This document shows, one piece after another, positions 1 to 15,368 of a stretch of 42,818 nt of DNA. The DNA is from Chrysiogenia bacterium (GTDB taxonomy: Bacteria; JAGRBM01): positions 1 through 42,818 of the forward strand of contig JAGRBM010000369.1 in NCBI GenBank assembly GCA_020434085.1, in the 5' to 3' direction. The notes under the pieces are model-generated. The model made no database searches. It was not told the DNA's origin and saw only the letters and a list, made by a program, of their open reading frames with translations. The position numbers and the translations under genes were made by a program. Each line of letters begins with the position of its first letter. Within the stretch, counting starts at the first letter, position 1.

Positions 1-3000
1 ACGCGGCCCGGAGCCTTGGCCGACTCGGCATCGCCGCCGCTTGCCCGCGAGGGACCGGCCGGCGGCAGGGAGAGCATCCAGCCGACGGTCTCGAAGGTCT
101 CGATCCCCAGGCCCCGGTTTGCAAAGATCTGCGAGAGCGGGTCGGGCGTCTTGAAGTTGGTCAGTTGCAGCACGCCTTCGTCGACCGCCGCAATGGTGAC
201 GTAGGTGGGTTCCGAAAGCCTTCCCACGTCCACGCTGACGTCGAGTTTACTGTTGGGGAGAATTTCCTCGGGCGCGGCAATGCTGACGGTCCCGACAAAG
301 CCCTCCGGCTCGATCTTGATCGATTGCACGCCGAACGCGCGCCCGGGCAGGAAGGCTTCCTTCGAGTCAATGTGCGGATCCTTTACCAGGAAGGCGCTGA
401 CGTAGACGTTGGGCGCAAAGTCCTCGACCTCGAACTCCCAGCTCACCGTGCCGGTGGCAGCGTCCATCCATTGCGACTCGATGACGTGGTCGGTTTCCAG
501 GGTGAACAGAATCCGGCCGCGGTAGGGAACCTCCGCGTTCGCCTGGGCTTTCTCGCCGACCTTGATCTGCGCGGGTACCTTCAGTGGCAAAGATTTGGGG
601 CGCAGGGGCCTTGGCGTTTCGTCGCGGCGGCTCATGCCCTGGCCTTCATCGAACCACCACCAGAAGTCGTCCTCGAAGTCACCTTCAAGATACAGATCGG
701 TCTCGGCCCTGCCGCTCCGGGCGCGCACGATGTAGCCGACCGCGCGGGAGTTAGGGGTGAGGGTTTCCTTGAATCGCCCGCCGCTCACCGTGACCTTTTG
801 CTTCCCCTCGGAAACAAGCCGCTGGATTCGTTCGTATTTCCACCAGCCGTCACTATCGTCGCGGTACCAGTTGAGCTCCTGCTCCACGTGGTAGAGCTGA
901 AACTCAATCTCCTCTATGTCGGAAACGATCTCGCCGTTCCAGTCCACGACCAGCCCTTCAATCTGAACCGGAGCCCCAGGACCCACGGCCTTGGCGCCCG
1001 AGGCGAGGCCCACGTAGTAGCGCTCGGGATGGACGCTCACCCGGGCCGTGCCCGTGGTGCTTCTCCCGCTTCCGGCCTCGAACACCGAAGCCCGCGCCAC
1101 CATCTCACCGGGTCCGCGGAAAGCGCCCGCTTCCAGGGGGCTGGGGCAGATCGCATCGGCGTGTCCCTTCTTGCCCAGCACGCCGGTCAGGTTGCCGACC
1201 AGCAGCGTGCGTTGTTTCGATTTCTCGGGATTCCAGACGCCGTAGGTGAACTCGGTGTTTTTCGGCGGCCGGAAACCCGTCGGCTTGAGCTGGCAGCTCA
1301 CCTCGTAGCGACTGCCCTCGGCGTCGCCACCGAAGAGGTACTCGGCGTCGATTGCGACGGGCACGGTCTGGTTGATGAGATAGGGGCCCTCGCCGGGCTT
1401 CACCTTGACCCGCATACGTTCGGGAACAAATTCCTCGACATTGAAGCCATACTGCGCGATCTGCGTCTTGGCGATCTCCAGGCTGAGCTTGTAGGCGCCG
1501 GTGTCTGCGAAGTCGGCGAACTGTTGATCGTAAGCGACAATGCCCGCGTCGTTGGTCTTGAGCGCCCGGCGTGCCAGGACTCTGCCTCGCGGATCGGTGA
1601 GGATGAGTTCCACGGGCATTTCCGCCGTCGGGGCGACGTAGGATTTGTCGCGCACGATGCCGACCAGGTGCGCCGTCTCGCCCGGACGGTAGACGCCGCG
1701 ATCGCTGTAGAGAGCCGCGGAATAGGCGGCCGCGCGCTCGTATGGCTCGCCCTGCACCTGCGAGCCTTCGAGATCGACCTCCAGCTCGCTGAATTTCAGA
1801 AAGGTGAAGTCATTCCCCTTTGTGGCCACGATGGCGAACGGCGGGCTCTTGTCTTCTCCCGCCGGCCCGGCCTCCAGCACGCACCCGCCGCCTCCTCCGC
1901 TCGTGCATTCGGCGACGGCCCTGCCGCTCTTGGTGATCCACTTGATCCGCGCGCCCGAGGCAGGCGCGGCGGTGTGGGCGTCGATGGCCCAGACGTTGAG
2001 GTGCTTGCCCCATCCGTCGGGCGAGGGGGCGCTGCTTCGCTTGACGATGAGATTCAGATTCGTCAGTGCAATCCGGGCGGTGTCGCGCTTGCCTTTCGCC
2101 GTGACGGTAAGTTCATAAACACCGCGCTCGGGACTTGGAACCAGCGCCTCCAGATCGATCCAGCTCGTTTTCTGTTCGTCGAGCTGACCGGAGACGCGGA
2201 GCGTCTTCTGCAACACGAGATCGGAGGTCCGGTCATCGGTCTGCTCGCTCTCGCCGCTGAGCCAGTAGACGACATTCTGTGCGCCCACGTGGCGCACGGA
2301 GAGCACCAATTCATCGACGTTGAGATGGCGAAGCGGAAGATTGCCCCAGCTGTCGGCGGGCAGGTAGCGACCCTTCGAACCGAACGCGACGCTGGGGCTG
2401 CGCTCGGGTACGGTAAACAGCGTCTCGTAGGTCTCACCCAGCACGCCGCCGTCTTCGGAGCGCGCGCCCGCGTCGATGCGCATGCGGTAGCTCCCGCGCG
2501 CGAAGTCGCCCAGCAGCCGGAATCCCCGCCGGGTGGCGGAGACACTGACCTGTACCGGCGGGTCGAAGTGAACCGCCGTCTCCACGTCTTCGGGCCGCAG
2601 AACGCAACGATCAGAAATGTAGATGTAGTCGCGGCGCATACTGTCCCAGCGGTAGTAGTTCTTGCCGCCGGCCGCGCGGTCGTCGCAGACGACTTCGATG
2701 AAGTGGCCCGATGCGCCTTCCTTGCGATTGGCTTCGAAGATGGTGAGTGCTTCGCCGAGTTTGACCAGAAGCCGCTCCTCGGTGGCGGGCGCTCTAACCG
2801 AGCGGTCGCCTGCCAACTGGACGCCATCCTGCATGACGAACTGCACCTGCGCCTGGGTCTTCGCCGTCGAGGGACGGAGCTTCACACGCGCCACGTTCGG
2901 CCGGTCCGCCGCCTGGTAGCTGACATCGGTTACGCCCGCACCGTCGATGAGCCAACGACTCGATTGCCGCAGGCTTCCCAGATCCACCGGCGCGGAAAAG

Positions 3001-3581
3001 ACGAGATCGAGCTCCGCCTGAAGGGTGCGCTGGACCTTGTTCACCTTGTGGGGCGAGACGCGCACGAGGCGGAAGGCGGGTGCCTCGAACGCGAAGTCCC
3101 ATGCGTTGGCACTGGGCGGTTCGAGCACGCCGTCCTTGGTTTCGAGTTTCTCCAAAGATGCAGTGAACCTGGTGGCGGGCGGCAGCGGCTTCTCGGGCTC
3201 GAAGAGCAGGCTCGCTGGACCGGTTCGCATCAGCCTTCCGCTGACCTCGGGCGAGAGGGAAAGAACGGTCTTGTCGGAGACCGCCTGATTCACCTGCTCG
3301 GGCTCGAACACGATTTGGGAGAAGGAAATTTCGATCTGGTGGGGAACGACGCCCTCTTCGCCGATGAGCCGGAAGAACGGGCGCACCTGTGCCGCGGTAA
3401 CGGCGGGCCTGGTCGAGACTTCCTTCGGGCCGGTATCGGGAACCTGCGTGGGGGCGGACCTCGCCGCGACTTTCTTTTCGTCTTTCCTGATTTCTCCCTT
3501 GCAGCTCAAAGCCCCGGTTGCCAGAAGACAGGCAAACACGGCGGCAAGCGCGCAGGTACGGACACGGATGGAAATCTGCAT
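1..3581 (-). CDS. alpha-2-macroglobulin family lipoprotein (YfhM-like); N-terminal ~1193 codons, 3-prime end beyond window
   Basis: Not in the ORF track because there is no stop in the window. Reverse-strand ATG at 3581-3579 has GGAGG 7 nt upstream. My translation starts MQISIRVRTCALAAVFACLLATGALSC (signal peptide plus lipobox LSC) and I saw no stop down to position 1. Segments YRPGETAHLVGIVRD, VEEFVPERMRVKV and AAVDEGVLQLTNFKTPDP match conserved blocks I recall from E. coli YfhM / bacterial alpha-2-macroglobulins. The thioester region would lie off-window. Confidence 0.85.
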   Translation of the reverse strand, partial: MQISIRVRTCALAAVFACLLATGALSCKGEIRKDEKKVAARSAPTQVPDTGPKEVSTRPAVTAAQVRPFFRLIGEEGVVPHQIEISFSQIVFEPEQVNQAVSDKTVLSLSPEVSGRLMRTGPASLLFEPEKPLPPATRFTASLEKLETKDGVLEPPSANAWDFAFEAPAFRLVRVSPHKVNKVQRTLQAELDLVFSAPVDLGSLRQSSRWLIDGAGVTDVSYQAADRPNVARVKLRPSTAKTQAQVQFVMQDGVQLAGDRSVRAPATEERLLVKLGEALTIFEANRKEGASGHFIEVVCDDRAAGGKNYYRWDSMRRDYIYISDRCVLRPEDVETAVHFDPPVQVSVSATRRGFRLLGDFARGSYRMRIDAGARSEDGGVLGETYETLFTVPERSPSVAFGSKGRYLPADSWGNLPLRHLNVDELVLSVRHVGAQNVVYWLSGESEQTDDRTSDLVLQKTLRVSGQLDEQKTSWIDLEALVPSPERGVYELTVTAKGKRDTARIALTNLNLIVKRSSAPSPDGWGKHLNVWAIDAHTAAPASGARIKWITKSGRAVAECTSGGGGGCVLEAGPAGEDKSPPFAIVATKGNDFTFLKFSELEVDLEGSQVQGEPYERAAAYSAALYSDRGVYRPGETAHLVGIVRDKSYVAPTAEMPVELILTDPRGRVLARRALKTNDAGIVAYDQQFADFADTGAYKLSLEIAKTQIAQYGFNVEEFVPERMRVKVKPGEGPYLINQTVPVAIDAEYLFGGDAEGSRYEVSCQLKPTGFRPPKNTEFTYGVWNPEKSKQRTLLVGNLTGVLGKKGHADAICPSPLEAGAFRGPGEMVARASVFEAGSGRSTTGTARVSVHPERYYVGLASGAKAVGPGAPVQIEGLVVDWNGEIVSDIEEIEFQLYHVEQELNWYRDDSDGWWKYERIQRLVSEGKQKVTVSGGRFKETLTPNSRAVGYIVRARSGRAETDLYLEGDFEDDFWWWFDEGQGMSRRDETPRPLRPKSLPLKVPAQIKVGEKAQANAEVPYRGRILFTLETDHVIESQWMDAATGTVSWEFEVEDFAPNVYVSAFLVKDPHIDSKEAFLPGRAFGVQSIKIEPEGFVGTVSIAAPEEILPNSKLDVSVDVGRLSEPTYVTIAAVDEGVLQLTNFKTPDPLSQIFANRGLGIETFETVGWMLSLPPAGPSRASGGDAESAKAPGR

Positions 3582-3916
3582 GGAACCCTCCCCCTGAAAA
3601 ATCGCTGCAGGTGTGACCCGCGAATAGTACGGGAAGGGGCGCTGGAGGGCAATGACGGGGGCCAAGTGACCGATAATGCGTCGGTTGGCGTGTGGGAGAC
3701 ACGAGGTACCAGTCTCGGCGAGATAGGGGCGGGGCCCCTTGGCTGCCACGAGATTGCCGCGTGGTGATGCACCGGTTGAATCCTCGTTACCACGTGGCGA
3801 TTCGAGGCTGTCGTCATCATTCCAGCTCCCGGTATCCAGGAGTTGCGCACAGCTTTCCTTTGCGAACACGCATGGCGAGCTTACGGCCGAGCACATCGCT
3901 CGAAAGGAAATCCGCC

Positions 3917-5323
3917 ATGTCCGACCAGAATGAAATCTACCCCGATGGGGAAAGCCGAGTTTACACTCCTGGGCCCGAGCCTGCGTATACAGAGCCACGC
4001 AGGGCCCAAGCCGAACCGGCGAGGGCGGAACCCGCACCCGTAACGGAGAAGCCCTCCCGCAAGAGCCTCCTCGCCGAGGAGGCGCAGACGCTCTCGGAAA
4101 TCATCGCATCGCTGGGCGGCGCAACTGCGGGGCGCCTCAAGCTCTGCGTGCAGCGAAATGTCCGCGGGATCGGCTGGAAGTCCCTGCGGGCGATCCAGAT
4201 CGAGGAGTGGATGATTGACAATGGTCTCGACGTGCCCGAAGTCGTAGGGGAGGCCTATGGCGACGGCTTCTACCGCTGGCAGCTCCGTTATGCCGGAAGA
4301 TTCCTGCGCAAGGGGGATTGCCATTTGGAGGGCTATGAGCACGTCCGCGACGACGCAATTCCGCCGCCCGATAGCGAGGATATGCCGCAGGTTGATCTTG
4401 TGCAGCTCCTCGAACAGCTTCGCAAGGAAATGCGCGACGAAATCAGGACCGCGACCGCGATGCCGCAGACGCTCTCGGGTCAGGGGGATCAGCTCAAGGC
4501 CGTGATGGAACCGCTCATGCGCTTCCTCGAATCGAAATTCCCCGGACAGCCCACCAAGCCCCAGGGCGCCGATCCAACGGTGACAGCTCTCATCTCGATG
4601 ATGGCGCAGCAGACCAACACGTTCATGCAGGTCATGGCGCAGGGGATGACTCACGCGCCCGCATCGGCGCAGCCCACGCTCACCGAGAACGTGCGTGTGC
4701 TCAAGGAGATCATGGAAGTGGCGCGGGGGCTCAGCACGCCGCAGTTTGCTCCATATGAAGACTCAGAAGATACGTATGACGATGCAATCCCCGACCTTCT
4801 CGCTCCGTTGCAGGAACAGCCCGCCGCGCCGCAGGGAAATCCGATCATGGATCAGCTGGGCAAGAGTGTCAGCGCGGCGGCGAATCGGCTGCTGACCAAT
4901 CTCGTGCAGGTGGGGGAGGAGAGGCTCGCCGAGCAAGTCACCCAGATGGCCGGGGCACAGCAGGCGCCCGCGCAGGCGGCTCAGACTGCTCCGGTTCAGA
5001 ACGCCGAGAGCGCGTCCTCAGCAGCGGACCCCGCCCAGGAGATCGAGATCCTCTGCGATGCCCTCGATCACTGCATCACGTATCAGATCCCGCCAGAGCG
5101 ACTCGCCAGGGAACTGGCCTCCACCTATCCACCCGAAACGCTGCAGCAACTCACTGCCGAGGGCATTGACGCCCGGCAACTCGCTGACGGACTGGCCATC
5201 ATGGGCAAACCGGAGCTCGCACAAAAACTGCGCGAACCGGCGTATGCGGAGTATCTGGAAAAGCTGATCGGGGCGTTGCGGGAGAGAACCCTGGGGGCTT
5301 TACCCGATGGCTTGGATTCTTGA
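3917..5323 (+). CDS. hypothetical protein (468 aa; acidic, with Q/A-rich low-complexity segments)
   Basis: Part of track ORF 3692-5323. I prefer the in-frame ATG at 3917 (MSDQNEIYPDG...) because AAAGGAAA lies 7-14 nt upstream. An alternative ATG at 3872 has no Shine-Dalgarno sequence. I recognise no family motif. Confidence 0.6.
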   Translation: MSDQNEIYPDGESRVYTPGPEPAYTEPRRAQAEPARAEPAPVTEKPSRKSLLAEEAQTLSEIIASLGGATAGRLKLCVQRNVRGIGWKSLRAIQIEEWMIDNGLDVPEVVGEAYGDGFYRWQLRYAGRFLRKGDCHLEGYEHVRDDAIPPPDSEDMPQVDLVQLLEQLRKEMRDEIRTATAMPQTLSGQGDQLKAVMEPLMRFLESKFPGQPTKPQGADPTVTALISMMAQQTNTFMQVMAQGMTHAPASAQPTLTENVRVLKEIMEVARGLSTPQFAPYEDSEDTYDDAIPDLLAPLQEQPAAPQGNPIMDQLGKSVSAAANRLLTNLVQVGEERLAEQVTQMAGAQQAPAQAAQTAPVQNAESASSAADPAQEIEILCDALDHCITYQIPPERLARELASTYPPETLQQLTAEGIDARQLADGLAIMGKPELAQKLREPAYAEYLEKLIGALRERTLGALPDGLDS

Positions 5324-5354: not shown

Positions 5355-6245
5355 CTATGCCAGATCCTCGCGGATGGGGTTCATCTGCTCCCACCATGAA
5401 CGAGTGAACCACGTTTCCGTGAACTTCCCTTCGAGTTCCATCGCCAGTTGGGCCCGTTGCTCTATCGAAAATCCCGAGTCGACGCCCCACCCAGAGCGGA
5501 TACGAACTCGGCTCCATGCGCCGCTGGGAAGCCTTTCGATTTCAAGAATCTCCGCGCGCCCGTTGCCGTAGGAAAGACCCACATAGGTCTCGCCGATTTG
5601 AGGGTCGGCATTGAAGTCTGGCGACTTCAGGTCGCGCGCCCGGGCCACGAGATGGTTCAGCCGGAACGGCCATGCGGAGGAGGGAGTTTCGCTGGGCCGG
5701 GGGGCTCGAACGGGGCAGCTCTCGCGGGGGTCGCATCGCCGATGGCGTTCAAAGCTGTGACGGGCGAGCAAAAGGCAGCAAGCGTTGGCACCGCTCAATA
5801 CCGGGGAAAGGACTTGCTCGGGATCATCCTCCCACGTGCAGACAGGGCAGACGTCATACCGGCCAAGTGCCGCGAGCGTGAAACAGAAACAAACGGGGCA
5901 CTGGTTCAGTCCATTCCAATCCGATGCCAGCGACAGGCTCTGGACGAACACTTCGAGATCCTGGAGCCAGCAAAGCCGACCTGGAAGTGAGCCGACATCT
6001 TCCCGGAAGCTCAATCCAAAGGGCTTGCGGTGTCCATGTTCAAGCCAGCATTGCTCCCTGGCATTGGCGCCGTAGGGATACATGTGCGGGCGCCTGGAAA
6101 AGCCAATGCGGTAAGTCAGCTCGAAATCCCGGTGAGCGATCTCCCACCTGCCGTCGACGTGGGGCGGATCCCAAGACTCTGCGTCAATTCGCCAGCCCTC
6201 GGCGATCAGGCGTTTGCGAAGCAGTTGTCGGTGCCAGCCTGGCAT
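5355..6245 (-). CDS. hypothetical protein with a CPCC-type cysteine-rich motif
   Basis: Track ORF 5355-6332. The internal ATG at 6245 (MPGWHRQLL...) has GAGG 7 nt upstream, so the start is uncertain (6332 is the alternative). It contains CPVCFCFTLAALGRYDVCPVCTWEDDPEQ...SGAN, which resembles the Cys_rich_CPCC family pattern CPCCG..L....YEICPVCFWEDD. Confidence 0.65.
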   Translation of the reverse strand: MPGWHRQLLRKRLIAEGWRIDAESWDPPHVDGRWEIAHRDFELTYRIGFSRRPHMYPYGANAREQCWLEHGHRKPFGLSFREDVGSLPGRLCWLQDLEVFVQSLSLASDWNGLNQCPVCFCFTLAALGRYDVCPVCTWEDDPEQVLSPVLSGANACCLLLARHSFERHRRCDPRESCPVRAPRPSETPSSAWPFRLNHLVARARDLKSPDFNADPQIGETYVGLSYGNGRAEILEIERLPSGAWSRVRIRSGWGVDSGFSIEQRAQLAMELEGKFTETWFTRSWWEQMNPIREDLA

Positions 6246-6376
6246 GTAATCCCTCGAAATAACCGGTGCCGATCGACCGCGCACCGATGGACTCCCGAGA
6301 TTTTGGCAGCTGGATATGTCACCTGCTGTCACACCTCTCCGGGAACCTCAACAAAACGAACCCGGAGGAGGGACAA

Positions 6377-6805: not shown

Positions 6806-7441
6806 TTGCTGGAAGCCCTGAAAAAGCCCGAAAAGCCCTCCTGGCGCCCCCTTGGGGAGCTAGCGGAGCTTTTTTCCGGCCTCCCGCTGCACCGGAAGCG
6901 GGCCCTTGCCGGGATGGCTGCGCCGGTCGTCCAGGTGGGGGACCTCCAGGGGGCCGAGGATCCCGAATGGCGGCTTGGCCGGGTTTCGGTGCCCGATCTG
7001 GGGCGCCACCGGCGCTTTCACCTTCGGGCGGGCGACGTGGCCATCGCCACCAAGGGGGCGGGCTTTCGCACCGCCCTCGTGCCGGCGCGCTGGGCGGGAG
7101 CGATCCTGACGGGGAACCTCATCGGCATCCGGGCTAGGGGGGAAGTCCTGCCCGAACTCCTCCATGCCTGGCTCTCGGGGGAGGAAACCCGCTGGCTCCT
7201 CGAATCGCGGGCCACGGGGTCGCGTCTGCTCAACATTTCTCTTAAATCTATCACGGAAGTGCCCGTGCCCGTTCTGCCCATGGCGGAGCAGGAACGCCTG
7301 GCCGAGCTGCTTCGGGCAAGCCGGGAACAGAGCGAGCAGGCGCTGCTGGCCTCGCGCCTCCGCACAAGAATTTCGCAAAAGATCGTTGCCGATGCTCTGC
7401 GCGGCGCGGAGTCATCCGACATCGGGGGAAACCGTTCATGA
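6806..7441 (+). CDS. hsdS: Type I restriction-modification specificity subunit, half-size (single target-recognition domain)
   Basis: 211 aa with a TTG start and GGAAGG upstream. It has the HsdS layout: W-x-P-L-G-E-L opening (SWRPLGELAELFSG), one TRD, then the conserved helical region VPVLPMAEQERLAELL. The stop overlaps the hsdM start (ATGA at 7438-7441). Confidence 0.8.
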   Translation: MLEALKKPEKPSWRPLGELAELFSGLPLHRKRALAGMAAPVVQVGDLQGAEDPEWRLGRVSVPDLGRHRRFHLRAGDVAIATKGAGFRTALVPARWAGAILTGNLIGIRARGEVLPELLHAWLSGEETRWLLESRATGSRLLNISLKSITEVPVPVLPMAEQERLAELLRASREQSEQALLASRLRTRISQKIVADALRGAESSDIGGNRS

Positions 7442-8943
7442 AAGTTATGACCACGACCCAGCTCTTCAGCCACATCTGGAAGGCCGCTGACATCCTGCGC
7501 GGCTCCATCGACTCGTCCGACTACAAGGGCTTTATCTTCGCCATGATGTTTTTGAAGCGTGCCTCCGACGTCTTCGACGAAGAGGCCGAGCGCATTCTGA
7601 AAGAAACCGGCGATGAGAAACTTGCCTACGACGAGCCCGACGAGCACCCGATCTTTGTGCCCAGGCGCGCGCGCTGGGAGGAGCTTCGCAAGAAATCCGC
7701 TCAGATCGGCGACGCCCTGAACAAGGCCTGCGAGGCCCTTGAAGAAGCCAACCCCACGCTCGAAGGCGTGCTGGCCGGCATCGACTTCAACGACGAGCAC
7801 AGACTCGGTGATGCCAAGCAGCGCGACACCCTGCTCGCGCGGCTCATCCTGCATTTCTCGGAAGTCAGCCTGCGCAATGACGCGCTGCCGAAATCGGACG
7901 TGCTGGGTGACGTCTACGAATACCTTATCGAGAAATTTGCCGATGACGCCGGCAAGAAGGGCGGCGAGTTCTACACGCCCCACGGCGTCGTGAAGCTCCT
8001 AGTGGAGCTTCTCGACCCCAAAGAGGGGATGCGCATCTGCGACCCGACCTGCGGCTCGGGCGGCATGCTTATTGAGTGCGCCCGGCACGTGAAGGGCGCG
8101 GGCGGCAATGTGCGCAACCTCTCGCTCTACGGGCAGGAAAAGAATCTGGGGACCTGGTCCATTGCCAAGATGAACCTCATCTTCCACGGCATCCGCGACG
8201 CGCGCATCGAGAAGGGCGACACCATCGCCCAGCCCAAACTCCTCGAACAGGGCGAACTCATGCTCTTCGACCGGGTGATTGCCAATCCCCCGTTCAGTCT
8301 CAAGGAATGGGGGCGCACTGCCGCCGAGGCCGACAGGTACGGGCGCTTCCGTTTCGGCATTCCGCCCGCCAGCAAGGGGGACATGGCGTTTCTGCAGCAC
8401 ATGGTGGCGAGTTTGAACTCCAAAGGCATGATGGGCGTCGTCATGCCCCACGGCGTCCTCTTCCGCGGGGCGAGCGAGGGGAAAATCCGCGAGGAGATCC
8501 TCAAGGAGGACTTGCTCGAAGCGGTCATCGGCCTGCCGCCGAATCTCTTTTATGGCACGGGCATCCCGGCCGCGATTCTCATCCTGCGCGCCAAAGGTGC
8601 CAAGCCCAGGGGCCGCAAGGGCAAGGTGCTCTTCATCCACGCGACCGAGGGATTCGAGAGCGCGCCCAACCAGAACAAGCTGCGCGAGCAGGACATCGCG
8701 CGCATCGTCGCGGCCTTTCGCGCGTTCAAGGACGAAGAAAAATTCGCCCGCGCCGTGCCGCTCGAAGAGATCGCGCAGAACGCGTTCAACCTCAATATTT
8801 CCCGCTACGTGGACCTGACCGAGGAAGAAGAAATCCCCGACGTTCGCGAGGCGCTCAAAGCCCTGCGCGAGGCCGAGAAGCGCCGCGACGAGGCCGAGAA
8901 GAAAATGAACAAGATGCTCAAGGAGCTGGGGTTCGAGGGATGA
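7438..8943 (+). CDS. hsdM: Type I restriction-modification DNA methyltransferase subunit M (N6-adenine)
   Basis: 501 aa. It has the SAM-binding motif DPTCGSGGML, the catalytic NPPF motif (VIANPPFSLKEW), and an HsdM N-terminal helical region (LFSHIWKAADILRGSIDSSDYKGFIFAMMFLKR). Confidence 0.95.
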   Translation: MKVMTTTQLFSHIWKAADILRGSIDSSDYKGFIFAMMFLKRASDVFDEEAERILKETGDEKLAYDEPDEHPIFVPRRARWEELRKKSAQIGDALNKACEALEEANPTLEGVLAGIDFNDEHRLGDAKQRDTLLARLILHFSEVSLRNDALPKSDVLGDVYEYLIEKFADDAGKKGGEFYTPHGVVKLLVELLDPKEGMRICDPTCGSGGMLIECARHVKGAGGNVRNLSLYGQEKNLGTWSIAKMNLIFHGIRDARIEKGDTIAQPKLLEQGELMLFDRVIANPPFSLKEWGRTAAEADRYGRFRFGIPPASKGDMAFLQHMVASLNSKGMMGVVMPHGVLFRGASEGKIREEILKEDLLEAVIGLPPNLFYGTGIPAAILILRAKGAKPRGRKGKVLFIHATEGFESAPNQNKLREQDIARIVAAFRAFKDEEKFARAVPLEEIAQNAFNLNISRYVDLTEEEEIPDVREALKALREAEKRRDEAEKKMNKMLKELGFEG

Positions 8944-10160
8944 GCCGCAAACTTTCAAAAGGCTGGCGCCGCGTGCGGCTTGGTGAGGTCGTTCAAGAGC
9001 GCCCTGAGTTCATCACGGTTTGGGATGAACGTGTCTATAAACGGATCACACTTCGCCTTCGTAATCAGGGGATTGCGTTGAGGGATGAGGTGCATGGGCA
9101 CAAGTTGCGGACAAAAAAACAACGTGTCGTGCGCGCGGGTGATCTGGTAGTCGCCGAGATCGATGCCAAGATGGGTGGCTTCGGGATTGCGCCACCTGAG
9201 ACTGAAGGAGCCATCGTCAGCAGTCATTACTACCTATTTACTGTCGATCAAGCCAAGTGCGACCTGGGGTATCTGGACGCGTGCATCCGCAAGGGGATGT
9301 TGCACCGGCAGGTATTTGCCGTTGGATCGACCAACTATGCGGCGATTCGTTCCCGCGACGTACTCGATTATCGCATTCCGCTCCCTCCAATGTCTGATCA
9401 AAAGCGCATCGCCGACGCCCTGCGCGTGATGGACGATGCCATCCGCGCCAATGAGGAAGTCCTGGAATGCACCCGCGCGTTCAAGAAATCGCTGGCTCAC
9501 GAACTCCTGACCCGCGGCATTCCGGGCCGGCACACGCGGTTCAAGGACTCGCCGCTGGGGAAGATTCCGGCGGAGTGGGAGGTGAAGAGGTTGGGGGATG
9601 TGGCGGGTTTATCTTCTGGCGGAACGCCCGCCCGTGGTAATCCTTCTTATTGGGGCGGCAAAATTTTGTGGGTAAAGACCGGAGAGATAGATTTCAATAT
9701 CATTGAAGACACTGAAGAGAAGATTACGCAGACAGGGCTCGATAACTCTGCGGCAAAGATTGTTCCCCGAGGCGCTATTCTTATGGCGTTGTATGGACAA
9801 GGCAAAACGCGTGGCAAGGTGGCACGCTTAGGGAAACCCGCTGCTACAAATCAAGCATGCGCGGTTATTGAAGCACCCGAGGACCTTGATGCTGATTACC
9901 TGTATCACTACTTGGCGGCTAATTACTTGAGGTTCCGGGCATTGAGTAACGATGGAAGCCAGAAGAATCTCAGCCTCGTCTTAATTCGAGATTTCCCTGT
10001 CCCAATTCCCACCAAAGGCGAACAACAAGAAATCGCTTCTACCTTGGAAGCATGTGTAAACCAAACCCCAGCGCTCGAATGCACGCGGGAGAGTCTAGAC
10101 GCAACGAAAAGCCGGATGCGCGATGCCCTTCTGGCCGGGGCCCTGGGAGGTGCGGCATGA
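8940..10160 (+). CDS. hsdS: Type I restriction-modification specificity subunit S (two target-recognition domains)
   Basis: 406 aa from ATG 8940, with an ATGA overlap on the hsdM stop. There are two TRDs opening with GWRRVRLGEV and EWEVKRLGDV, each followed by a conserved spacer (PLPPMSDQKRIADAL; PIPTKGEQQEIASTL). The listed 5-prime extension 8076-8939 is an Arg-rich out-of-frame overlap with hsdM and is excluded. Confidence 0.9.
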   Translation: MSRKLSKGWRRVRLGEVVQERPEFITVWDERVYKRITLRLRNQGIALRDEVHGHKLRTKKQRVVRAGDLVVAEIDAKMGGFGIAPPETEGAIVSSHYYLFTVDQAKCDLGYLDACIRKGMLHRQVFAVGSTNYAAIRSRDVLDYRIPLPPMSDQKRIADALRVMDDAIRANEEVLECTRAFKKSLAHELLTRGIPGRHTRFKDSPLGKIPAEWEVKRLGDVAGLSSGGTPARGNPSYWGGKILWVKTGEIDFNIIEDTEEKITQTGLDNSAAKIVPRGAILMALYGQGKTRGKVARLGKPAATNQACAVIEAPEDLDADYLYHYLAANYLRFRALSNDGSQKNLSLVLIRDFPVPIPTKGEQQEIASTLEACVNQTPALECTRESLDATKSRMRDALLAGALGGAA

Positions 10161-10432
10161 GCGTGTCCGCGCAGAGGCGGCAGCGGCGGTCGATCCGGTT
10201 GCGCGGGTACGATTACACGCGGGCCGGCGCGTATTTCTTGACGATCTGCGCGCGCGGGCGTGAGTGCCTCTTTGGTGAGGTGGCGGAGGGCACGGTTCGG
10301 CTGAGCGATTCCGGACGCGCGGTGGAAGCCGCGTGGCACGGTCTGCCGGAGCATTACCCGCATGTGGACCTGGATGCGTTCGTTGTCATGCCCAACCATG
10401 TTCACGGGATCATTGTTTTGTCGGATCCCGAC

Positions 10433-10461
10433 GTAGGGGCGGGTTTAAAACCCGCCCCTAC
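10433..10461. repeat. REP-like palindrome copy 1 (GTAGGGGCGGGTTTAAAACCCGCCCCTAC)
   Basis: Perfect 14+1+14 inverted repeat inside the RAYT CDS, translated as VGAGLKPAPT. Confidence 0.85.
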
Positions 10462-10487
10462 CGAAAATGCCGTGGTGGAAATGGACC

Positions 10488-10512
10488 GGGCGGGTTTAAA
10501 ACCCGCCCCTAC
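10488..10512. repeat. REP-like palindrome copy 2 (GGGCGGGTTTAAAACCCGCCCCTAC)
   Basis: It lies 26 nt after copy 1 inside the RAYT CDS. The left arm is shorter. It is translated as RAGLKPAPT in the same frame. Confidence 0.8.
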
Positions 10513-10764
10513 GGGGACACATCACGGGTTGCCCGAAATCGTGCGGGCGTTCAAGACGTTCTCGGCCCGTCGGATCAACGCGCTGCGGGGCACGCCGGGC
10601 GTTCCGGTCTGGCAACGAAATTACTACGAACACATCGTTCGTGATGATGACGATCTGGCTCGGATTCGTGAATACATCGCAAACAATCCGATCGGGTGGG
10701 GAGGCGACCGGGAGAATCCGGCAAATGCCGGCCGGGTGGAGCGTTTTCCCGACGAGGATGCGCC

Positions 10765-13700
10765 ATGACCCTCCCCACCACCCTCACCCGCATCGACGCG
10801 CTGCTCGCCCGCTGGCGGGCGCGGGTTCCGCTTTCGGAGCGGGATCTCGCGCAGCTGCGCGCGCACTGGGAGGTGGTGCATACCTACAATTCCAACGCAA
10901 TCGAGGGGAACACGCTCACCCTGGGGGAGACGAAGGCGGTCCTGCTGGACGGGATCACGATCAGCGGCAAGCCCCTGCGGGAGATCCTCGAAGTCACGAA
11001 CCATCGCGAGGCCATGCGGCTTCTCTACCGCTTTTCCGAATCGAAGACGCCCGTGAGCGAGGCGGAGATTCTGGACCTGCACCGGCTTATCCTCACCGGC
11101 ATCCAGGCCGACGACGCCGGGCGCTATCGCCGCACCGGCGTTCGCGTGGCGGGATCGCAGCACGTCTTTCCCAATCCGGCGAAAGTGCCGGCGCTGATGG
11201 AGGAATTCGTTTCTGCCGTCGGTGCCTGGGACGACCACCCGGTGCTGGTGGCGGCCCGGGCGCATTTCAAACTCGTGGCGATCCACCCCTTCGCCGACGG
11301 CAACGGCCGCACAGCGCGGCTCCTCATGAATCTGCTGCTCATGCGCGGGGGTTGCCCGCCCGCCTATCTGAAAGTCGAACGCCGGGGGCTCTACTACGAT
11401 GCGCTGGAAGAAGGGCATACCAGGGGCACCGCCCGTTTCGAGGAATTCATCGCGAACGCGGTGCGCGAATCGCTGGAGGAAACCCTTGCGGCATTGGGCG
11501 AGGAACCGGCGGAGATCGTAGGGGCGGGTTTGAAACCCGCCCCTACGGGGGAGATTGCGGCGACGGGGCGGGGATACCGGCGCGGCGACTATGGGTTTGG
11601 GAAGAAGCTCTGGCCCGAAGAGAAGGAATCGGAACTCCCGGCGCTGGAGTTGCTCGAAAATCTGGGCTGGACCTTCGTGCCGGCCGCCGAACTCGACGGC
11701 GAGCGCGAGGGGGAGCGCGACCTCATCCTGAACGCGCGACTCGAACGCGCCCTGCGGCGCCTGAATCCCTGGCTTTCAGAGGAAAACGTGCGCAAGGCCG
11801 CACGCGCCGTGACGCATGTTCAGGCGACGGGGCTCATCGAGGCGAATGAGAAGATCCACCGCCACCTCGTCCACACGCTCTCGGTGGAGCAGGACACCGG
11901 CGACGGGCGAGGGCGCATCGGCCGGGACGTGCGCTTCATCGACTTTGCGCAGCCCGAAAGCAACGACTTCGTGGTGACGCGCCAGTTCGAGGTGATCGGC
12001 ACCCGCAAGTTGGTGCGCTTCGACCTCGTGTGCTTTGTGAACGGCCTGCCGCTCGCCGTGATCGAGTGCAAGGCTGCCGGTTTGGGCGAAAAATGGTTTG
12101 AGCAGGCGAGCACGCAGCTCGACCGCTACCAGGAGGCGGGCGATGCCTGGTACGGACAGGGTGTGCCGCGCGCGTTCGAGGCGGTGCAGGTACTGGCGGC
12201 CGTGGCGGGGCCAACGGGCGCGCGGCTCGGCACGGTGCTCACGCCCGGGCGCCACTTTGGCGAGTGGCGCGAGCCCTGGCCGCTCCCGCGCGATCAGATT
12301 GAAGACGATCTCGGCCGCAAGGCCACGCCCCAGGACATCCTGCTGGCGAGCGCCTTTACTCCCGCTGCGCTGCTGGACCTCGTCGCCAATTTCACCGTTT
12401 TCGAGCCCGAAGGCGGACGAGTCATCCGCAAGCTCGCGCGCTACCAGCAATTCATCGCTGTGAACAAGGCACTGGAGCGAATTCATGGCGCGCCAGAGCC
12501 GGAAAAGCGAGGCGGGATCGTCTGGCATACCCAAGGCTCGGGCAAGTCGCTCACGATGCTCTGGCTCGCGGTGAAGCTGCGCCGCATCGAGGCGCTGCAG
12601 AATCCTACGCTCGTTATCGTGACGGACCGGACCGATCTTGATGCGCAGATTCACGAGACCTTCGACCGGTGCGGCTTTCCCAATCCCGAAAGAGCCAAGA
12701 GCGTGAAGAATCTCCAGGAGCTTCTGCGCGGCGGATCGGGTCTCACTGTGATGACGACGATTCAAAAATTTCAGGATGTTTCAGGTGGGCGAGGGGAATC
12801 GCTCTCGGAGGAACCGAACATTTTCGTTCTGGTGGACGAGGCGCACCGCACCCAGTACAAGTCGCTTGCCGCCAACATGCGCAAGGCGCTTCCGAACGCC
12901 TGTTTTCTCGGCTTCACCGGCACGCCCATCGACAAGAACGACCGCTCCACGGCGCGGGTCTTCGGGCCCTACATCCATACCTATCCGATCCAGCAGGCCG
13001 TGGCGGATGGAGCCACCGTGCCGATCTACTACGAGAGCCGCCTGCCGGAACTCCGTGTGGAAGGGGAGACACTGGACGCGGTTTTCGAGCGGATCTTTCA
13101 GGATCGGAACGAAGACGAGCGCGCGGCGATCAAGAGCCGCTTCGCGACTTTGGAAGCTATTGCCGGCGCGCCCAAGCGCATCGAGCGCATCTGTCTCGAT
13201 CTGATCGAGCACTTCGAGAAGCACATTCATCCCAACGGTTTCAAGGCCCAGGTGGTGGCCTGCTCGCGCGACGCGGCGGTGACGTATCTGGAGGCGCTGG
13301 AGAAACTCGGCGCGCCTCAGGCTGCGATCATCATGTCGTCGTCCCACAACGACCCCGAGCGTCTGACGCGCCACAAGAAGACAAAGACCGAGCAGAAGGT
13401 GCTCATCGAGCGGTTCAAGAACCGTGACGATCCCCTCTCGATCCTCGTGGTCTGCGACATGCTGCTCACAGGCTTCGATGCGCCGGTGGAACAGGTGATG
13501 TACCTGGACGCGCCGCTGCGAGAGCACGGCCTGTTGCAGGCCATCGCCCGCGTGAACCGCCGCGCCGAGGGCAAAGACGGAGTTGAGAAAGATTACGGCC
13601 TTGTGGTCGATTACTGGGGCATTTCCCAGGAACTCCAGGATGCGCTGGCGATTTTCGATCCCAAGGACATTCAGGGAACGCTGACGGACATTCGCGACGA

Positions 13701-14631
13701 ACTCCCGCGGCTGCAACAACGCCATCGTCGCGTGATGCGCTACTTCGAGAAGGTTCCAAAAGACGATCTCGAATCCTGCATCCGCGCCCTCGAACCGGAG
13801 GATCGCCGTGCGGAATTCGAAGCGGAGTTCCGCAAATTCGTCCAGAGCCTCGACATGGTTCTGCCCGATCCCGAAGGACTCGCCTACAAGGCCGATCTCC
13901 ATTGGCTTGCGAAGCTGCGGGCCGCTGCCAGGGCGCGGTTCATCGATCCGCGCATGGATCTCACCGGTTGCGGTGCCAAAGTGAAAAAACTCATCGAGGA
14001 GTACCTTCGGGCGGAGGGGATTAGTCAGATCTTGGAACCAGTTGATATTTTCTCCAAGCGCTTTGACGAGGAAGTTGCCAAGCTCCGCTCGCCCGACGCC
14101 AAGGCCAGCAGGATGGAGCACGCGATCCGCCATGAAATCAACGTCCAAATTGAGCGGGATCCGATTTTCTACCAGAGGCTTTCCGACCGGCTGGAGGAGC
14201 TGATCCGCGAGCGGCGGGAAGGGCGCCTCAAGGCAGCTGAGGAATTGCGCCGCCTGGAGACGATACGCGAAAAAATGCGCGGGCGTGAAAAAGGAGAAGG
14301 GAAAGCCGGGCTTTCTCCCGACGCGGCGGCGTTCCTCGATCTTCTGAAAACCACTGAACGGGATGAGAGCGATGGCGGCGATGAGATCGCCGAAGAACCG
14401 GCTGCCTATGGAGCAGTGTCTGGGCCGGACGGTCAGGTGAAGCTGGTGAAGGAAATCCTCGGTTCCCTCGAACTGTTGGCCGTGATCGATTGGACGCAGA
14501 AGGAGGACGTGCAGCGCGAAATGCGCCGCCGGATCAAACGTCACCTGCGTGCCGCCGGGTATGACGGGATGCCGCTCGAAAACCTTACGACGAAGATGAT
14601 GGACCTGGCGCGGGTCCGCCTTGCACGCTGA
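10765..14631 (+). CDS. hsdR: Fic-domain protein fused in-frame to Type I restriction enzyme R subunit (HsdR)
   Basis: 1288 aa from ATG 10765.
- N-terminal ~245 aa form a Fic domain with the active-site motif HPFADGNGRTAR (11284-11319) and the inhibitory motif SNAIEG (10891-10908).
- From about 11623 it is a complete HsdR: N-terminal ELPALELLENLGW, nuclease motif FDLVCFVNGLPLAVIECK, and helicase motifs HTQGSGKSLTM, VLVDEAHRTQ and FLGFTGTP.
- There is no in-frame stop and no canonical in-frame start between the two parts. Confidence 0.85.
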   Translation: MTLPTTLTRIDALLARWRARVPLSERDLAQLRAHWEVVHTYNSNAIEGNTLTLGETKAVLLDGITISGKPLREILEVTNHREAMRLLYRFSESKTPVSEAEILDLHRLILTGIQADDAGRYRRTGVRVAGSQHVFPNPAKVPALMEEFVSAVGAWDDHPVLVAARAHFKLVAIHPFADGNGRTARLLMNLLLMRGGCPPAYLKVERRGLYYDALEEGHTRGTARFEEFIANAVRESLEETLAALGEEPAEIVGAGLKPAPTGEIAATGRGYRRGDYGFGKKLWPEEKESELPALELLENLGWTFVPAAELDGEREGERDLILNARLERALRRLNPWLSEENVRKAARAVTHVQATGLIEANEKIHRHLVHTLSVEQDTGDGRGRIGRDVRFIDFAQPESNDFVVTRQFEVIGTRKLVRFDLVCFVNGLPLAVIECKAAGLGEKWFEQASTQLDRYQEAGDAWYGQGVPRAFEAVQVLAAVAGPTGARLGTVLTPGRHFGEWREPWPLPRDQIEDDLGRKATPQDILLASAFTPAALLDLVANFTVFEPEGGRVIRKLARYQQFIAVNKALERIHGAPEPEKRGGIVWHTQGSGKSLTMLWLAVKLRRIEALQNPTLVIVTDRTDLDAQIHETFDRCGFPNPERAKSVKNLQELLRGGSGLTVMTTIQKFQDVSGGRGESLSEEPNIFVLVDEAHRTQYKSLAANMRKALPNACFLGFTGTPIDKNDRSTARVFGPYIHTYPIQQAVADGATVPIYYESRLPELRVEGETLDAVFERIFQDRNEDERAAIKSRFATLEAIAGAPKRIERICLDLIEHFEKHIHPNGFKAQVVACSRDAAVTYLEALEKLGAPQAAIIMSSSHNDPERLTRHKKTKTEQKVLIERFKNRDDPLSILVVCDMLLTGFDAPVEQVMYLDAPLREHGLLQAIARVNRRAEGKDGVEKDYGLVVDYWGISQELQDALAIFDPKDIQGTLTDIRDELPRLQQRHRRVMRYFEKVPKDDLESCIRALEPEDRRAEFEAEFRKFVQSLDMVLPDPEGLAYKADLHWLAKLRAAARARFIDPRMDLTGCGAKVKKLIEEYLRAEGISQILEPVDIFSKRFDEEVAKLRSPDAKASRMEHAIRHEINVQIERDPIFYQRLSDRLEELIRERREGRLKAAEELRRLETIREKMRGREKGEGKAGLSPDAAAFLDLLKTTERDESDGGDEIAEEPAAYGAVSGPDGQVKLVKEILGSLELLAVIDWTQKEDVQREMRRRIKRHLRAAGYDGMPLENLTTKMMDLARVRLAR
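11518..11546. repeat. REP-like palindrome copy 3 (GTAGGGGCGGGTTTGAAACCCGCCCCTAC)
   Basis: The same element with one loop substitution. It sits in the linker between the Fic and HsdR parts of ORF 10765-14631 and is again translated as VGAGLKPAPT. Confidence 0.85.
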
Positions 14632-15368
14632 TGGCCACCGCATCCAGAGCTATCGAGTTTGGCAATACCCGGATTTACTATCGGCTTCGCCGAGGAAAAC
14701 GGCAGAAGACGGTTGGCATTGCGATCGATCCGGTACAAGGGGTTCTCGTTCGAGCACCTCACGGTCTTCCCGTGGTCGAAGTGGACCGGATCGTTCGCCG
14801 CAAAGCCCGGTGGATTGTTTCCAGAATGGATCGTAGCGCCGGCGTTCCAGTGGCCCAGGCGGCTAGGGAATTTGTCAGCGGGGAGTCCTTTTCTTACTTG
14901 GGACGAAATTATCGCCTCAAGGTTATTCGCAGTCGGCGTTCGGAAACTTCTGTGAAGCTCGTCGGCGGTCGCTTTTTGGTCGAGGTTGGAAAGGGAATTC
15001 CCAAGCGCAGGCAAGCGGAAGAAATCCGCGGCGCCTTGGTGGATTGGTATCGCGCGCACGCCTTGGACAAACTCCGAAGCCGCGTGCACCTTCTGGCCCC
15101 AAAGCTTGGACTGGAACCGCCCGAGGTTCTGATCCGGGACCAGCGCAGGCGCTGGGCGAGCTGTGATTCGAGAGGGTGCCTCCGTTTTAACTGGCGCATC
15201 GCGATGGCGCCCCTGTCCCTCGTGGATTACGTTGTGGCTCACGAACTCTGCCACCTTGTCTACCACGACCACTCGGTACGTTTCTGGCGCGCCCTGCGCC
15301 AGCTCCTTCCGGATTTCGAGACCCGCAAGGAACGACTCGCCCTGGAGGGGCCGAGATTCATACTCTGA
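14631..15368 (+). CDS. DUF45 / YgjP-like zinc metallopeptidase (M48-type HEXXH)
   Basis: 245 aa. The ATG shares one nucleotide with the hsdR stop (TGATG). The HELCH motif lies at 15240-15254, in the typical C-terminal context WASCDSRGCLRFNWRIAMAPLSLVDYVVAHELCHLVYHDHSVRFW. As I recall, this family is a frequent neighbour of hsdR. Confidence 0.85.
   Translation: MATASRAIEFGNTRIYYRLRRGKRQKTVGIAIDPVQGVLVRAPHGLPVVEVDRIVRRKARWIVSRMDRSAGVPVAQAAREFVSGESFSYLGRNYRLKVIRSRRSETSVKLVGGRFLVEVGKGIPKRRQAEEIRGALVDWYRAHALDKLRSRVHLLAPKLGLEPPEVLIRDQRRRWASCDSRGCLRFNWRIAMAPLSLVDYVVAHELCHLVYHDHSVRFWRALRQLLPDFETRKERLALEGPRFIL

Follow-up and report, generated by a model that had tools for sequence, protein, structure and literature searches.

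A predicted Fic AMP-transferase domain fused in frame to the HsdR subunit of a type I restriction-modification system

The anticodon nuclease PrrC, encoded within the EcoprrI type I restriction-modification (R-M) locus, is the classic latent effector of a restriction operon, and RloC belongs to the same category. Type I R-M operons have also long been known to contain Fic/Doc genes, whose link to restriction is so far undemonstrated. In this report we describe a locus in which a Fic domain is part of the restriction subunit itself: in a contig of 42,818 nucleotides from a Chrysiogenia bacterium (JAGRBM010000369.1; the whole stretch is termed “the window” below) a single open reading frame (ORF), fic::hsdR, encodes a Fic domain followed by HsdR. 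Overall, the reading that we favour and regard as likely is that of a genuine Fic::HsdR fusion, which came first, with the repetitive extragenic palindromic (REP) element in its linker being a later, lineage-specific insertion and the Fic domain being a tethered, putatively auto-inhibited enzyme.

Several described systems bear on this arrangement. The rlo genes of Campylobacter hsd loci are cited in PMC10440598, and a pneumococcal phd-doc is flanked by hsd genes (PMC4257102). SoFic is a single-gene anti-phage defence (Millman et al. 2022, preprint 10.1101/2022.05.11.491447; PMC12249575); it is described as an abortive-infection AMPylase, and its C-terminal domain is reported to be critical for toxicity (PMC12249575). 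The fusion ORF of the window and its parts, to which these systems can be compared, are as follows (aa, amino acids; AF2, AlphaFold2; SF2, superfamily 2).

10765..14631, + strand: fic::hsdR fusion ORF, a single open frame from ATG 10765 with 1288 codons (1288 aa), identified by Pfam and protein search
10765..11499, + strand: Fic domain, class II and FICD-like, aa 1-245, identified by Pfam, PDB, AF2/Foldseek and motifs
11500..11613, + strand: inter-domain linker, aa 246-283 (38 aa), predicted to be disordered and fast-evolving
11614..14631, + strand: HsdR part, with nuclease, SF2 motor and C-terminal domain all complete, aa 284-1288, identified by Pfam and PADLOC

The original prediction of a single ORF with a complete Fic domain ahead of a complete HsdR is borne out by Pfam, by the alignment with FICD and by AF2/Foldseek. 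Pfam places the Fic domain at aa 97-192 (E 3.6e-23), and human FICD aligns with aa 28-244 in a PDB sequence search (E 2.6e-40). In the AF2 model of aa 1-560 (mean predicted local distance difference test score (pLDDT) 92, predicted template modelling score 0.57) aa 1-243 have a pLDDT above 90, and Foldseek matches the modelled Fic domain to FICD with E 5e-16, a root-mean-square deviation of 1.7 Å and 36% identity over ~245 residues; profile and structure searches alike find the Fic fold. The active-site motif, H174-PFADGNGRTAR-185, fits the consensus HxFx(D/E)GNGRxxR, and across 28 Fic homologues its H, F, D, G, N, G and final R are invariant, while its first R is more than 90% conserved. The inhibitory motif S43-NAI-E47-G48, located N-terminal of the Fic core, aligns with the alpha-inh region of FICD and is invariant in the 28 homologues as well as in all fusions; both HPFADGNGRTAR and SNAIEGN are unchanged in every fusion. 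Since the inhibitory motif sits N-terminal of a canonical AMPylation motif, the Fic part would be a class II, intramolecularly inhibited enzyme.

The HsdR part is equally intact. It comprises HSDR_N (aa 286-482), SWI2_SNF2/ResIII (561-786), T1R_D3-like (871-950) and T1RH-like_C (1009-1280) domains according to Pfam, and the PADLOC profile REase_I matches across aa 286-1267 of the fusion protein (E 1e-159). The translation reveals the nuclease motif VIECK, the Walker A motif HTQGSGKS and the DEAH motif VDEAHR. Hence nuclease, SF2 motor and C-terminal assembly domain are all present, and hsdM and hsdS are co-encoded on the same strand. The AF2 fold of aa 284-560 matches EcoR124I HsdR in Foldseek, and the HsdR part is 63-71% identical to stand-alone HsdR proteins, which begin with M-x(5-10)-WNE.

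Between these domains the linker reads ...LGEEPAEIVGAGLKPAPTGEIAATGRGYRRGDYGFGKKLWPEEKESELP (also given as ...LGEEPAEIVGAGLKPAPTGEIAATGRGYRRGDYGFGKKLWPEE...), which agrees with the earlier transcription, including the translation of the window's third REP copy in frame at aa 252-261. The pLDDT drops below 50 for aa 252-279, a stretch that contains the REP-coded residues, and the model predicts two rigid domains joined by a floppy tether. As had been proposed, the linker has no in-frame stop, and from the end of Fic to the HsdR N-terminus neither ATG nor GTG occurs in frame, to which we add that there are three weak in-frame TTG codons, at 11494, 11530 (in the REP loop) and 11650, none with a well-spaced Shine-Dalgarno sequence. 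The ATG at 11591, flagged earlier as out of frame, is so and gives MGLGRSSGPKRRNRNS. Because no stop ends the Fic frame in any orthologue, the fusion would be made regardless of internal starts. The gene thus appears to specify a predicted AMP-transferase domain that is complete, motif-intact, auto-inhibited and obligatorily made as part of HsdR.

The architecture recurs outside the window. A search for Fic+HsdR architectures, suggested by the original prediction, was carried out with the full protein against 5.8 billion proteins and found two other clusters of fused orthologues at full coverage, namely P0122 (locus L003; 1296 aa, 86% identical, NCBI assembly GCA_040960215.1) and P0123 (1269 aa, 66% identical, two Logan assemblies, L004 and L005). 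The P0123 cluster also holds MCW5829638.1 from a “Deltaproteobacteria bacterium”, which lies on a 260-kb contig of a metagenome-assembled genome and is annotated in GenBank as HsdR only. Fused orthologues are found in at least four other assemblies, all in hsdM-hsdS-x-fic::hsdR-ygjP operons, and, counted by contig, the fusion is present in at least five that are independent and come from different samples, always in frame although the linker has three different lengths.

Nei-Gojobori estimates for pairs of fused orthologues give dN/dS ratios of 0.11-0.17 for the Fic part, 0.08-0.15 for the HsdR part and 0.47-0.80 for the linker, and the dN values of Fic and HsdR are alike within each pair. By this measure, the Fic and HsdR halves are under purifying selection and the linker (26-45 aa) is near-neutral. 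Further fusions are scarce. A search with aa 1-480 against 1.84 billion representative proteins yielded, among the matches listed, only the window's own 50%-identity cluster as spanning both domains; distant fusions under ~150 bits were not listed, and fusions of other Fic subfamilies to HsdR could escape such a search. A metagenome scan with a degenerate DNA pattern for ESLEETLAALGEEP gave no match, a scan with the junction protein gave 11 HsdR loci and no further fusion, and our literature search found no paper describing a Fic-HsdR fusion. Judged by these comparisons, the Fic::HsdR fusion is real, conserved and rare.

Compared with the PrrC/EcoprrI system, the locus likewise places an accessory effector inside a type I hsd operon, here as fic in frame with hsdR, between hsdS and ygjP. 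By analogy, a second presumed likeness would be that of a latent effector which the R-M complex keeps silent and sets free upon a block of restriction. Unlike PrrC, the Fic domain is an AMP-transferase rather than an RNase, is covalently attached to HsdR and has its own class II alpha-inh inhibitor; a PrrC-like or HEPN domain was not detected in the fusion by Pfam or PADLOC. Stand-alone Fic/Doc genes in type I operons share the neighbourhood, and the fic genes of loci L034 and L036, which at 247 aa match the fused Fic in length, are translationally coupled to hsdR, but these are separate polypeptides, as opposed to the single 1288-aa chain of the window. Doc, moreover, is a kinase with a Phd antitoxin, whereas the fused Fic is FICD-like, with a canonical AMPylation motif and no separate antitoxin. 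With FICD/HYPE and bacterial class II Fic proteins (BT_2513, 3CUC) the fused domain has in common the N-terminal inhibitory helix SxxxEG and the HPFxDGNGRxxR motif; it differs from FICD/HYPE in being joined to a DNA translocase/nuclease and in lacking a TPR or membrane anchor. SoFic, finally, is a Fic AMPylase that acts against phages, and the PADLOC SoFic profile matches aa 42-243 (E 1e-29), yet this match covers profile positions 63-270 of 361, and the SoFic C-terminal domain is absent here. In the PDB search SoFic matches only aa 155-193 (E 6e-06) versus E 2.6e-40 for FICD. Since the C-terminal domain is missing and FICD is much closer, the fused Fic is not a SoFic.

A gene fusion is one of the best genomic clues to two proteins acting together. 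The fusion, conserved and under selection, and the fic-hsdR pairs that are translationally coupled in unrelated bacteria speak for joint action of this Fic subfamily and the restriction complex. What the Fic domain does there is a matter of two main proposals. The one we tentatively prefer, though we hold it to be somewhat less than probable, is by analogy a tethered back-up effector as in PrrC/EcoprrI, but covalent and with a different chemistry. Each HsdR in an R2M2S1 complex would carry a latent AMP-transferase held off by its own E47; a change of state of the restriction complex, such as a stall or a block imposed by an anti-restriction protein, would lift the inhibition, and the infection would be halted through AMPylation of a target in the host or the phage. 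The effector is favoured over a regulatory role because Fic proteins can be abortive-infection effectors and type I operons house latent effectors.

Displacing the inhibitory glutamate is what switches class II Fic enzymes, and in FICD a change in oligomeric state does so. A more specific proposal, which we regard as rather doubtful, is that of a conformation-gated AMP-transferase in the restriction motor: once HsdR stalls or a phage anti-restriction protein blocks it, the glutamate would be displaced and the enzyme would AMPylate HsdR itself or a protein of the host or phage, converting failed restriction into growth arrest or restriction shut-off. If true, a restriction subunit would for the first time be seen to contain, as a physical part, an effector that acts by post-translational modification, and the repeated capture or fusion of Fic at this position would be a selected design and not an accident. 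As a single polypeptide with the switch residues E47 and H174, the protein is a clean test construct.

An alternative that we consider unlikely is that Fic is no toxin but a regulator that tunes or shuts down restriction, through FICD-like AMPylation and de-AMPylation of HsdR, HsdM or the YgjP-like protease, e.g., protecting the cell's own unmodified DNA. The closest solved relative, FICD, indeed has both AMPylase and de-AMPylase activity and regulates one partner only, the Fic part has kept the inhibitory glutamate on which de-AMPylation depends, and fusion ensures a 1:1 stoichiometry of Fic with HsdR; the conserved YgjP-like protease is always encoded 3' of hsdR, and the closest stand-alone Fic homologues lie outside defence loci. 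However, most close HsdR relatives do without any Fic, the slot occupied by Fic also houses classic defence cargo (SMODS, SIR2-HerA), and the PADLOC matches on the Fic domain, to the PDC-S04 and SoFic profiles, represent defence-type Fic families.

Unfused relatives outline where the fusion may have come from. Each of the 120 best Fic homologues is a separate protein, ~245 aa long and ending in ...LGE, precisely where the linker begins. Neither of the two closest (P0001, 83% and P0002, 71% identical) has hsd neighbours. When GTDB species genomes were scanned, four out of the best 80 Fic loci had hsdR downstream. The earlier statement that Fic genes sit in hsd operons was confirmed directly 5' of hsdR in L006, L034 and L036. 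In L034 (uncultured bacterium) and L036 (Desulfobotulus alkaliphilus), a 247-aa fic ends with a stop that overlaps the hsdR start in ATGA; ygjP follows hsdR in L034, and the L036 contig ends within hsdR. The closest unfused HsdR (P0124, locus L006; 71% identical) is preceded by a different Fic gene (48% identical), followed by TAA, 2 nt and the hsdR ATG. A separate fic directly 5' of hsdR would thus be the obvious precursor state of the fusion. More generally, these loci indicate that Fic recurs as cargo at the hsdR 5' end, usually translationally coupled and sometimes fused.

At L101 538-975, a 145-aa Fic remnant lies 5' of an hsdR close to that of L006, and an internal deletion takes the HPF of the active site (…ETRVVIDGNGRTAR…). 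This remnant is evidence, at the sequence level, of Fic decay and turnover at the slot.

The original prediction attributed the fusion to the REP element in the linker. The transposase gene and the REP copies concerned are listed here.

10157..10768, + strand: REP-associated tyrosine transposase (RAYT) / TnpA_REP tyrosine transposase gene, subclass 2.4 type (Pfam Y1_Tnp, NCBIfam REP_Tyr_transpos)
10433..10461, no strand: REP copy 1 (GTAGGGGCGGGTTTAAAACCCGCCCCTAC), in frame within the RAYT gene, read VGAGLKPAPT
10487..10509, no strand: REP copy 2, with an imperfect 5' arm, in frame within the RAYT gene, read RAGLKPAPT
11518..11546, no strand: REP copy 3 (GTAGGGGCGGGTTTGAAACCCGCCCCTAC), GTAG-headed, read VGAGLKPAPT, which is V252-T261 of the linker

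These three REP copies are the only ones in the window; all are intragenic, and all lie inside 1.1 kb. Copy 3 is a perfect palindrome with 14-15-bp arms that are 100% complementary (11517-11547; 0 chance matches expected), and its RNA hairpin has a folding energy of -33 kcal/mol (z -3.75). It is the same element as the two in-frame copies of the RAYT gene located 750 bp upstream. As an intrinsic terminator copy 3 was rejected, the hairpin lacking a following T-run.

The RAYT protein carries an HUH motif (HVHGII) and a Y motif (YYEHI), and both of its REPs are inserted in frame between them, the hallmark of TnpA_Y1 subclass 2.4. Its NCBIfam REP_Tyr_transpos score, 65.8 bits in two stretches, is below the cut-off of 80 because the insert splits the match. 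Repeats of the form VGAG[LFS][KE]PAPT, from one to more than eight, occupy the same place in ~110 of the 120 best RAYT homologues from many phyla, and homologues of the window protein carry the name RayT. REPs inserted within the tnpA_REP gene with the frame kept are described for subclass 2.4 (Quentin et al. 2018, PMC6006769), and in-frame GTAG REPs inside unrelated genes are tolerated in flexible regions (Di Nocera et al. 2013, PMC3733652); the exact REP peptide of the window is not listed in the supplement of PMC3733652. The REP and RAYT aspects of the locus are therefore already known biology: an in-frame palindrome in a flexible region, with a cognate RAYT gene adjacent that itself bears copies. 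The locus departs from these intragenic REPs and RAYTs and from Rickettsia palindromic elements in two respects: the host site joins the two domains of a defence protein as their tether, and the sister lineage L003 has an unrelated palindrome at the same place. With ATGA overlaps on both sides, the RAYT gene resembles a domesticated operon member.

A comparison of the linkers bears on the order of events. The window and L003 share the linker flanks GEEP... and ...DYGFxKxLxPEExESELP, and where the window has its REP, another perfect palindrome, CCCCCTCTCCGCAATGGCGGAGAGGGGG (10771-10796; -43 kcal/mol), read PSPSPQWRRGG, occupies the L003 linker. None of the nine related loci examined carries the window REP, the L003 palindrome is absent from the window, and no cognate transposase for it was seen in the L003 locus. 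The L004 linker, 26 aa long and Pro/Ala-rich, shows no significant hairpin (z -0.06) and runs directly into the HsdR N-terminus RWNEEDLSE; L004, L005 and MCW5829638.1 are all fused without any palindrome. The RAYT gene is absent from the orthologous loci and confined to the window lineage. Because L004 is fused without a palindrome, the L003 palindrome differs and RAYT occurs in the window alone, the fusion would predate the REP, which most likely inserted later into the floppy linker and did not create the fusion. In this scenario, the common ancestor of the window and L003 would already have been fused, and RAYT would then have entered the window lineage, seeding a REP copy 750 bp downstream. 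The insertion was presumably tolerated because it added only ten residues to an unstructured tether. Palindromic elements may land in the linker tether more often than elsewhere; disordered inter-domain tethers would take up mobile palindromes harmlessly, and a REP in a linker would be no sign of what caused a fusion.

The original proposal, that a REP inserted into a fic-hsdR spacer removed the stop and start signals and welded two genes into one ORF, is improbable on this evidence and does not hold for the fused loci that lack a palindrome. REPs usually land in intergenic spacers, the near-neutral linker between GEEP and DYGF resembles translated non-coding sequence, unfused fic-hsdR neighbours do exist, and a palindrome is found at the same linker site in both the window and L003; a conserved GGGGGAGA just 3' of the palindrome could be a relic ribosome-binding site. 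Yet the window and L003 have the fusion and the in-frame flanks in common and the REP not, the unfused fic-hsdR pairs offer no spacer to receive a REP (ATGA overlap or 2-nt gap), and the palindrome of 29 bp is not a multiple of three and alone would break the frame.

GGGGGAGA is conserved 3' of both palindromes (L003 10805-10822, window 11547-11560) and is followed by an in-frame TTG (aa 274) in L003 and by ATT at the matching codon of the window. This L003 TTG is plausible as an internal start or as a relic of an old hsdR ribosome-binding site.

Of similarly low probability is the alternative that HsdR is also, or mainly, translated alone from an internal linker start (TTG 11530 or another non-canonical codon), the fusion protein being a minor product. 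The in-frame TTG codons 11494 and 11530 of the window linker would allow it, and the L003 linker has an in-frame TTG just 3' of a strong GGGGGAGAGG. TTG 11530, however, is part of the loop of the -33 kcal/mol hairpin and lacks a Shine-Dalgarno sequence at proper spacing, the L004 stretch from Fic to the conserved HsdR N-terminus contains no ATG, GTG or TTG in frame, and the Fic frame runs on without a stop in every orthologue.

Several points weigh against the reading we favour. In neighbour-joining trees of either domain, the three fused lineages are not monophyletic (0-2% bootstrap). P0001 (L001 5498-6238, 246 aa), which is 83-86% identical to the fused Fic domains and lies outside an hsd locus, groups with the window and L003 at 98% bootstrap, leaving the L004 Fic outside, and the L004 HsdR groups weakly with unfused HsdRs. 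A single ancestral fusion is not supported by these trees, and the lack of monophyly suggests either two fusions or one fusion followed by loss or Fic swapping; the position of P0001 would also fit an escape of Fic from the fusion. The decayed Fic upstream of hsdR in L101 indicates that Fic is dispensable for this R-M family. In the window and L003 lineage alone, an older palindromic insertion in a former spacer might have aided the fusion and later been replaced, although nothing requires it, and in L003 some HsdR might be made without Fic, from the TTG preceded by GGGGGAGAGG.

That the fusion is an assembly or sequencing frameshift artefact, or its Fic part a decaying pseudogene, is very unlikely: the window is a single metagenome-type contig and L101 does show a decayed Fic 5' of hsdR, but fused orthologues recur in frame with three linker lengths in at least five independent contigs, the dN/dS of Fic is as low as 0.11-0.17, the catalytic and inhibitory motifs are intact, and AF2 models both domains with a pLDDT above 90 and a disordered tether between them.

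The fusion ORF comes fifth in a tightly packed type I R-M operon, whose order is half-hsdS, hsdM, hsdS, RAYT, fic::hsdR and ygjP. The remaining members are listed below; ATGA overlaps can be read directly at the hsdM-hsdS, hsdS-RAYT and RAYT-fic::hsdR junctions.

6806..7441, + strand: half-size HsdS-like gene with one target-recognition domain, first in the operon (PADLOC Specificity_I and mad5, NCBIfam HsdS-like)
7438..8943, + strand: hsdM, type I methyltransferase (Pfam N6_Mtase, E 9e-105; HsdM_N, E 3e-30)
8940..10160, + strand: hsdS, specificity subunit (Pfam Methylase_S in two stretches; tblastn to HsdS of L003, L004 and L008)
14631..15368, + strand: YgjP-like metallopeptidase gene, the conserved partner 3' of hsdR (Pfam YgjP-like, E 5e-57)

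The half-size HsdS-like gene is kept at the same position in L003 (85% identical) and in L007-L009 (~41% identical), and could be a spare specificity module. A ygjP gene follows hsdR also in L003, L004, L006-L009, L034, L091 and L093.

The gap between hsdS and hsdR is, in relatives, a slot for varied accessory defence genes. It contains SIR2-like and HerA genes upstream of fic in L034 (2480-5511), SMODS and a gene without a known family in L091 (4238-6004), DUF6119 ahead of fic::hsdR in L003 (8373-10004), two small genes without a known family in L004, and a YhcG/DUF1016 nuclease gene upstream of fic in L036 (1241-2413). Other close HsdR relatives have no Fic in the slot or have other cargo, e.g., a 414-aa protein without a known family. 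In some relatives, the hsdM-hsdS gap holds an AlbA_2-HATPase_c_4-Fic-like_C gene or an ORF6N gene. The more distant HsdR homologues P0175 (1171 aa) and P0215 (1214 aa) carry a Peptidase_S24 (LexA-like) domain, and extra domains on HsdR are therefore not confined to Fic.

Outside the operon, an ORF of 8012 aa extends over 15964-40002 of the window and encodes many DUF11 repeats, CARDB, PKD and Big_9/cadherin-like domains and a C-terminal OmpA domain; its product is probably an envelope-anchored cell-surface adhesin. The ORFs at 165-3767 (1200 aa) and 3692-5323 (543 aa) have no Pfam match, and the 543-aa product is 62% identical to that of a gene upstream of the L003 operon. On the opposite strand, 5355-6332 (-) encodes a 325-aa protein with a Cys_rich_CPCC domain.

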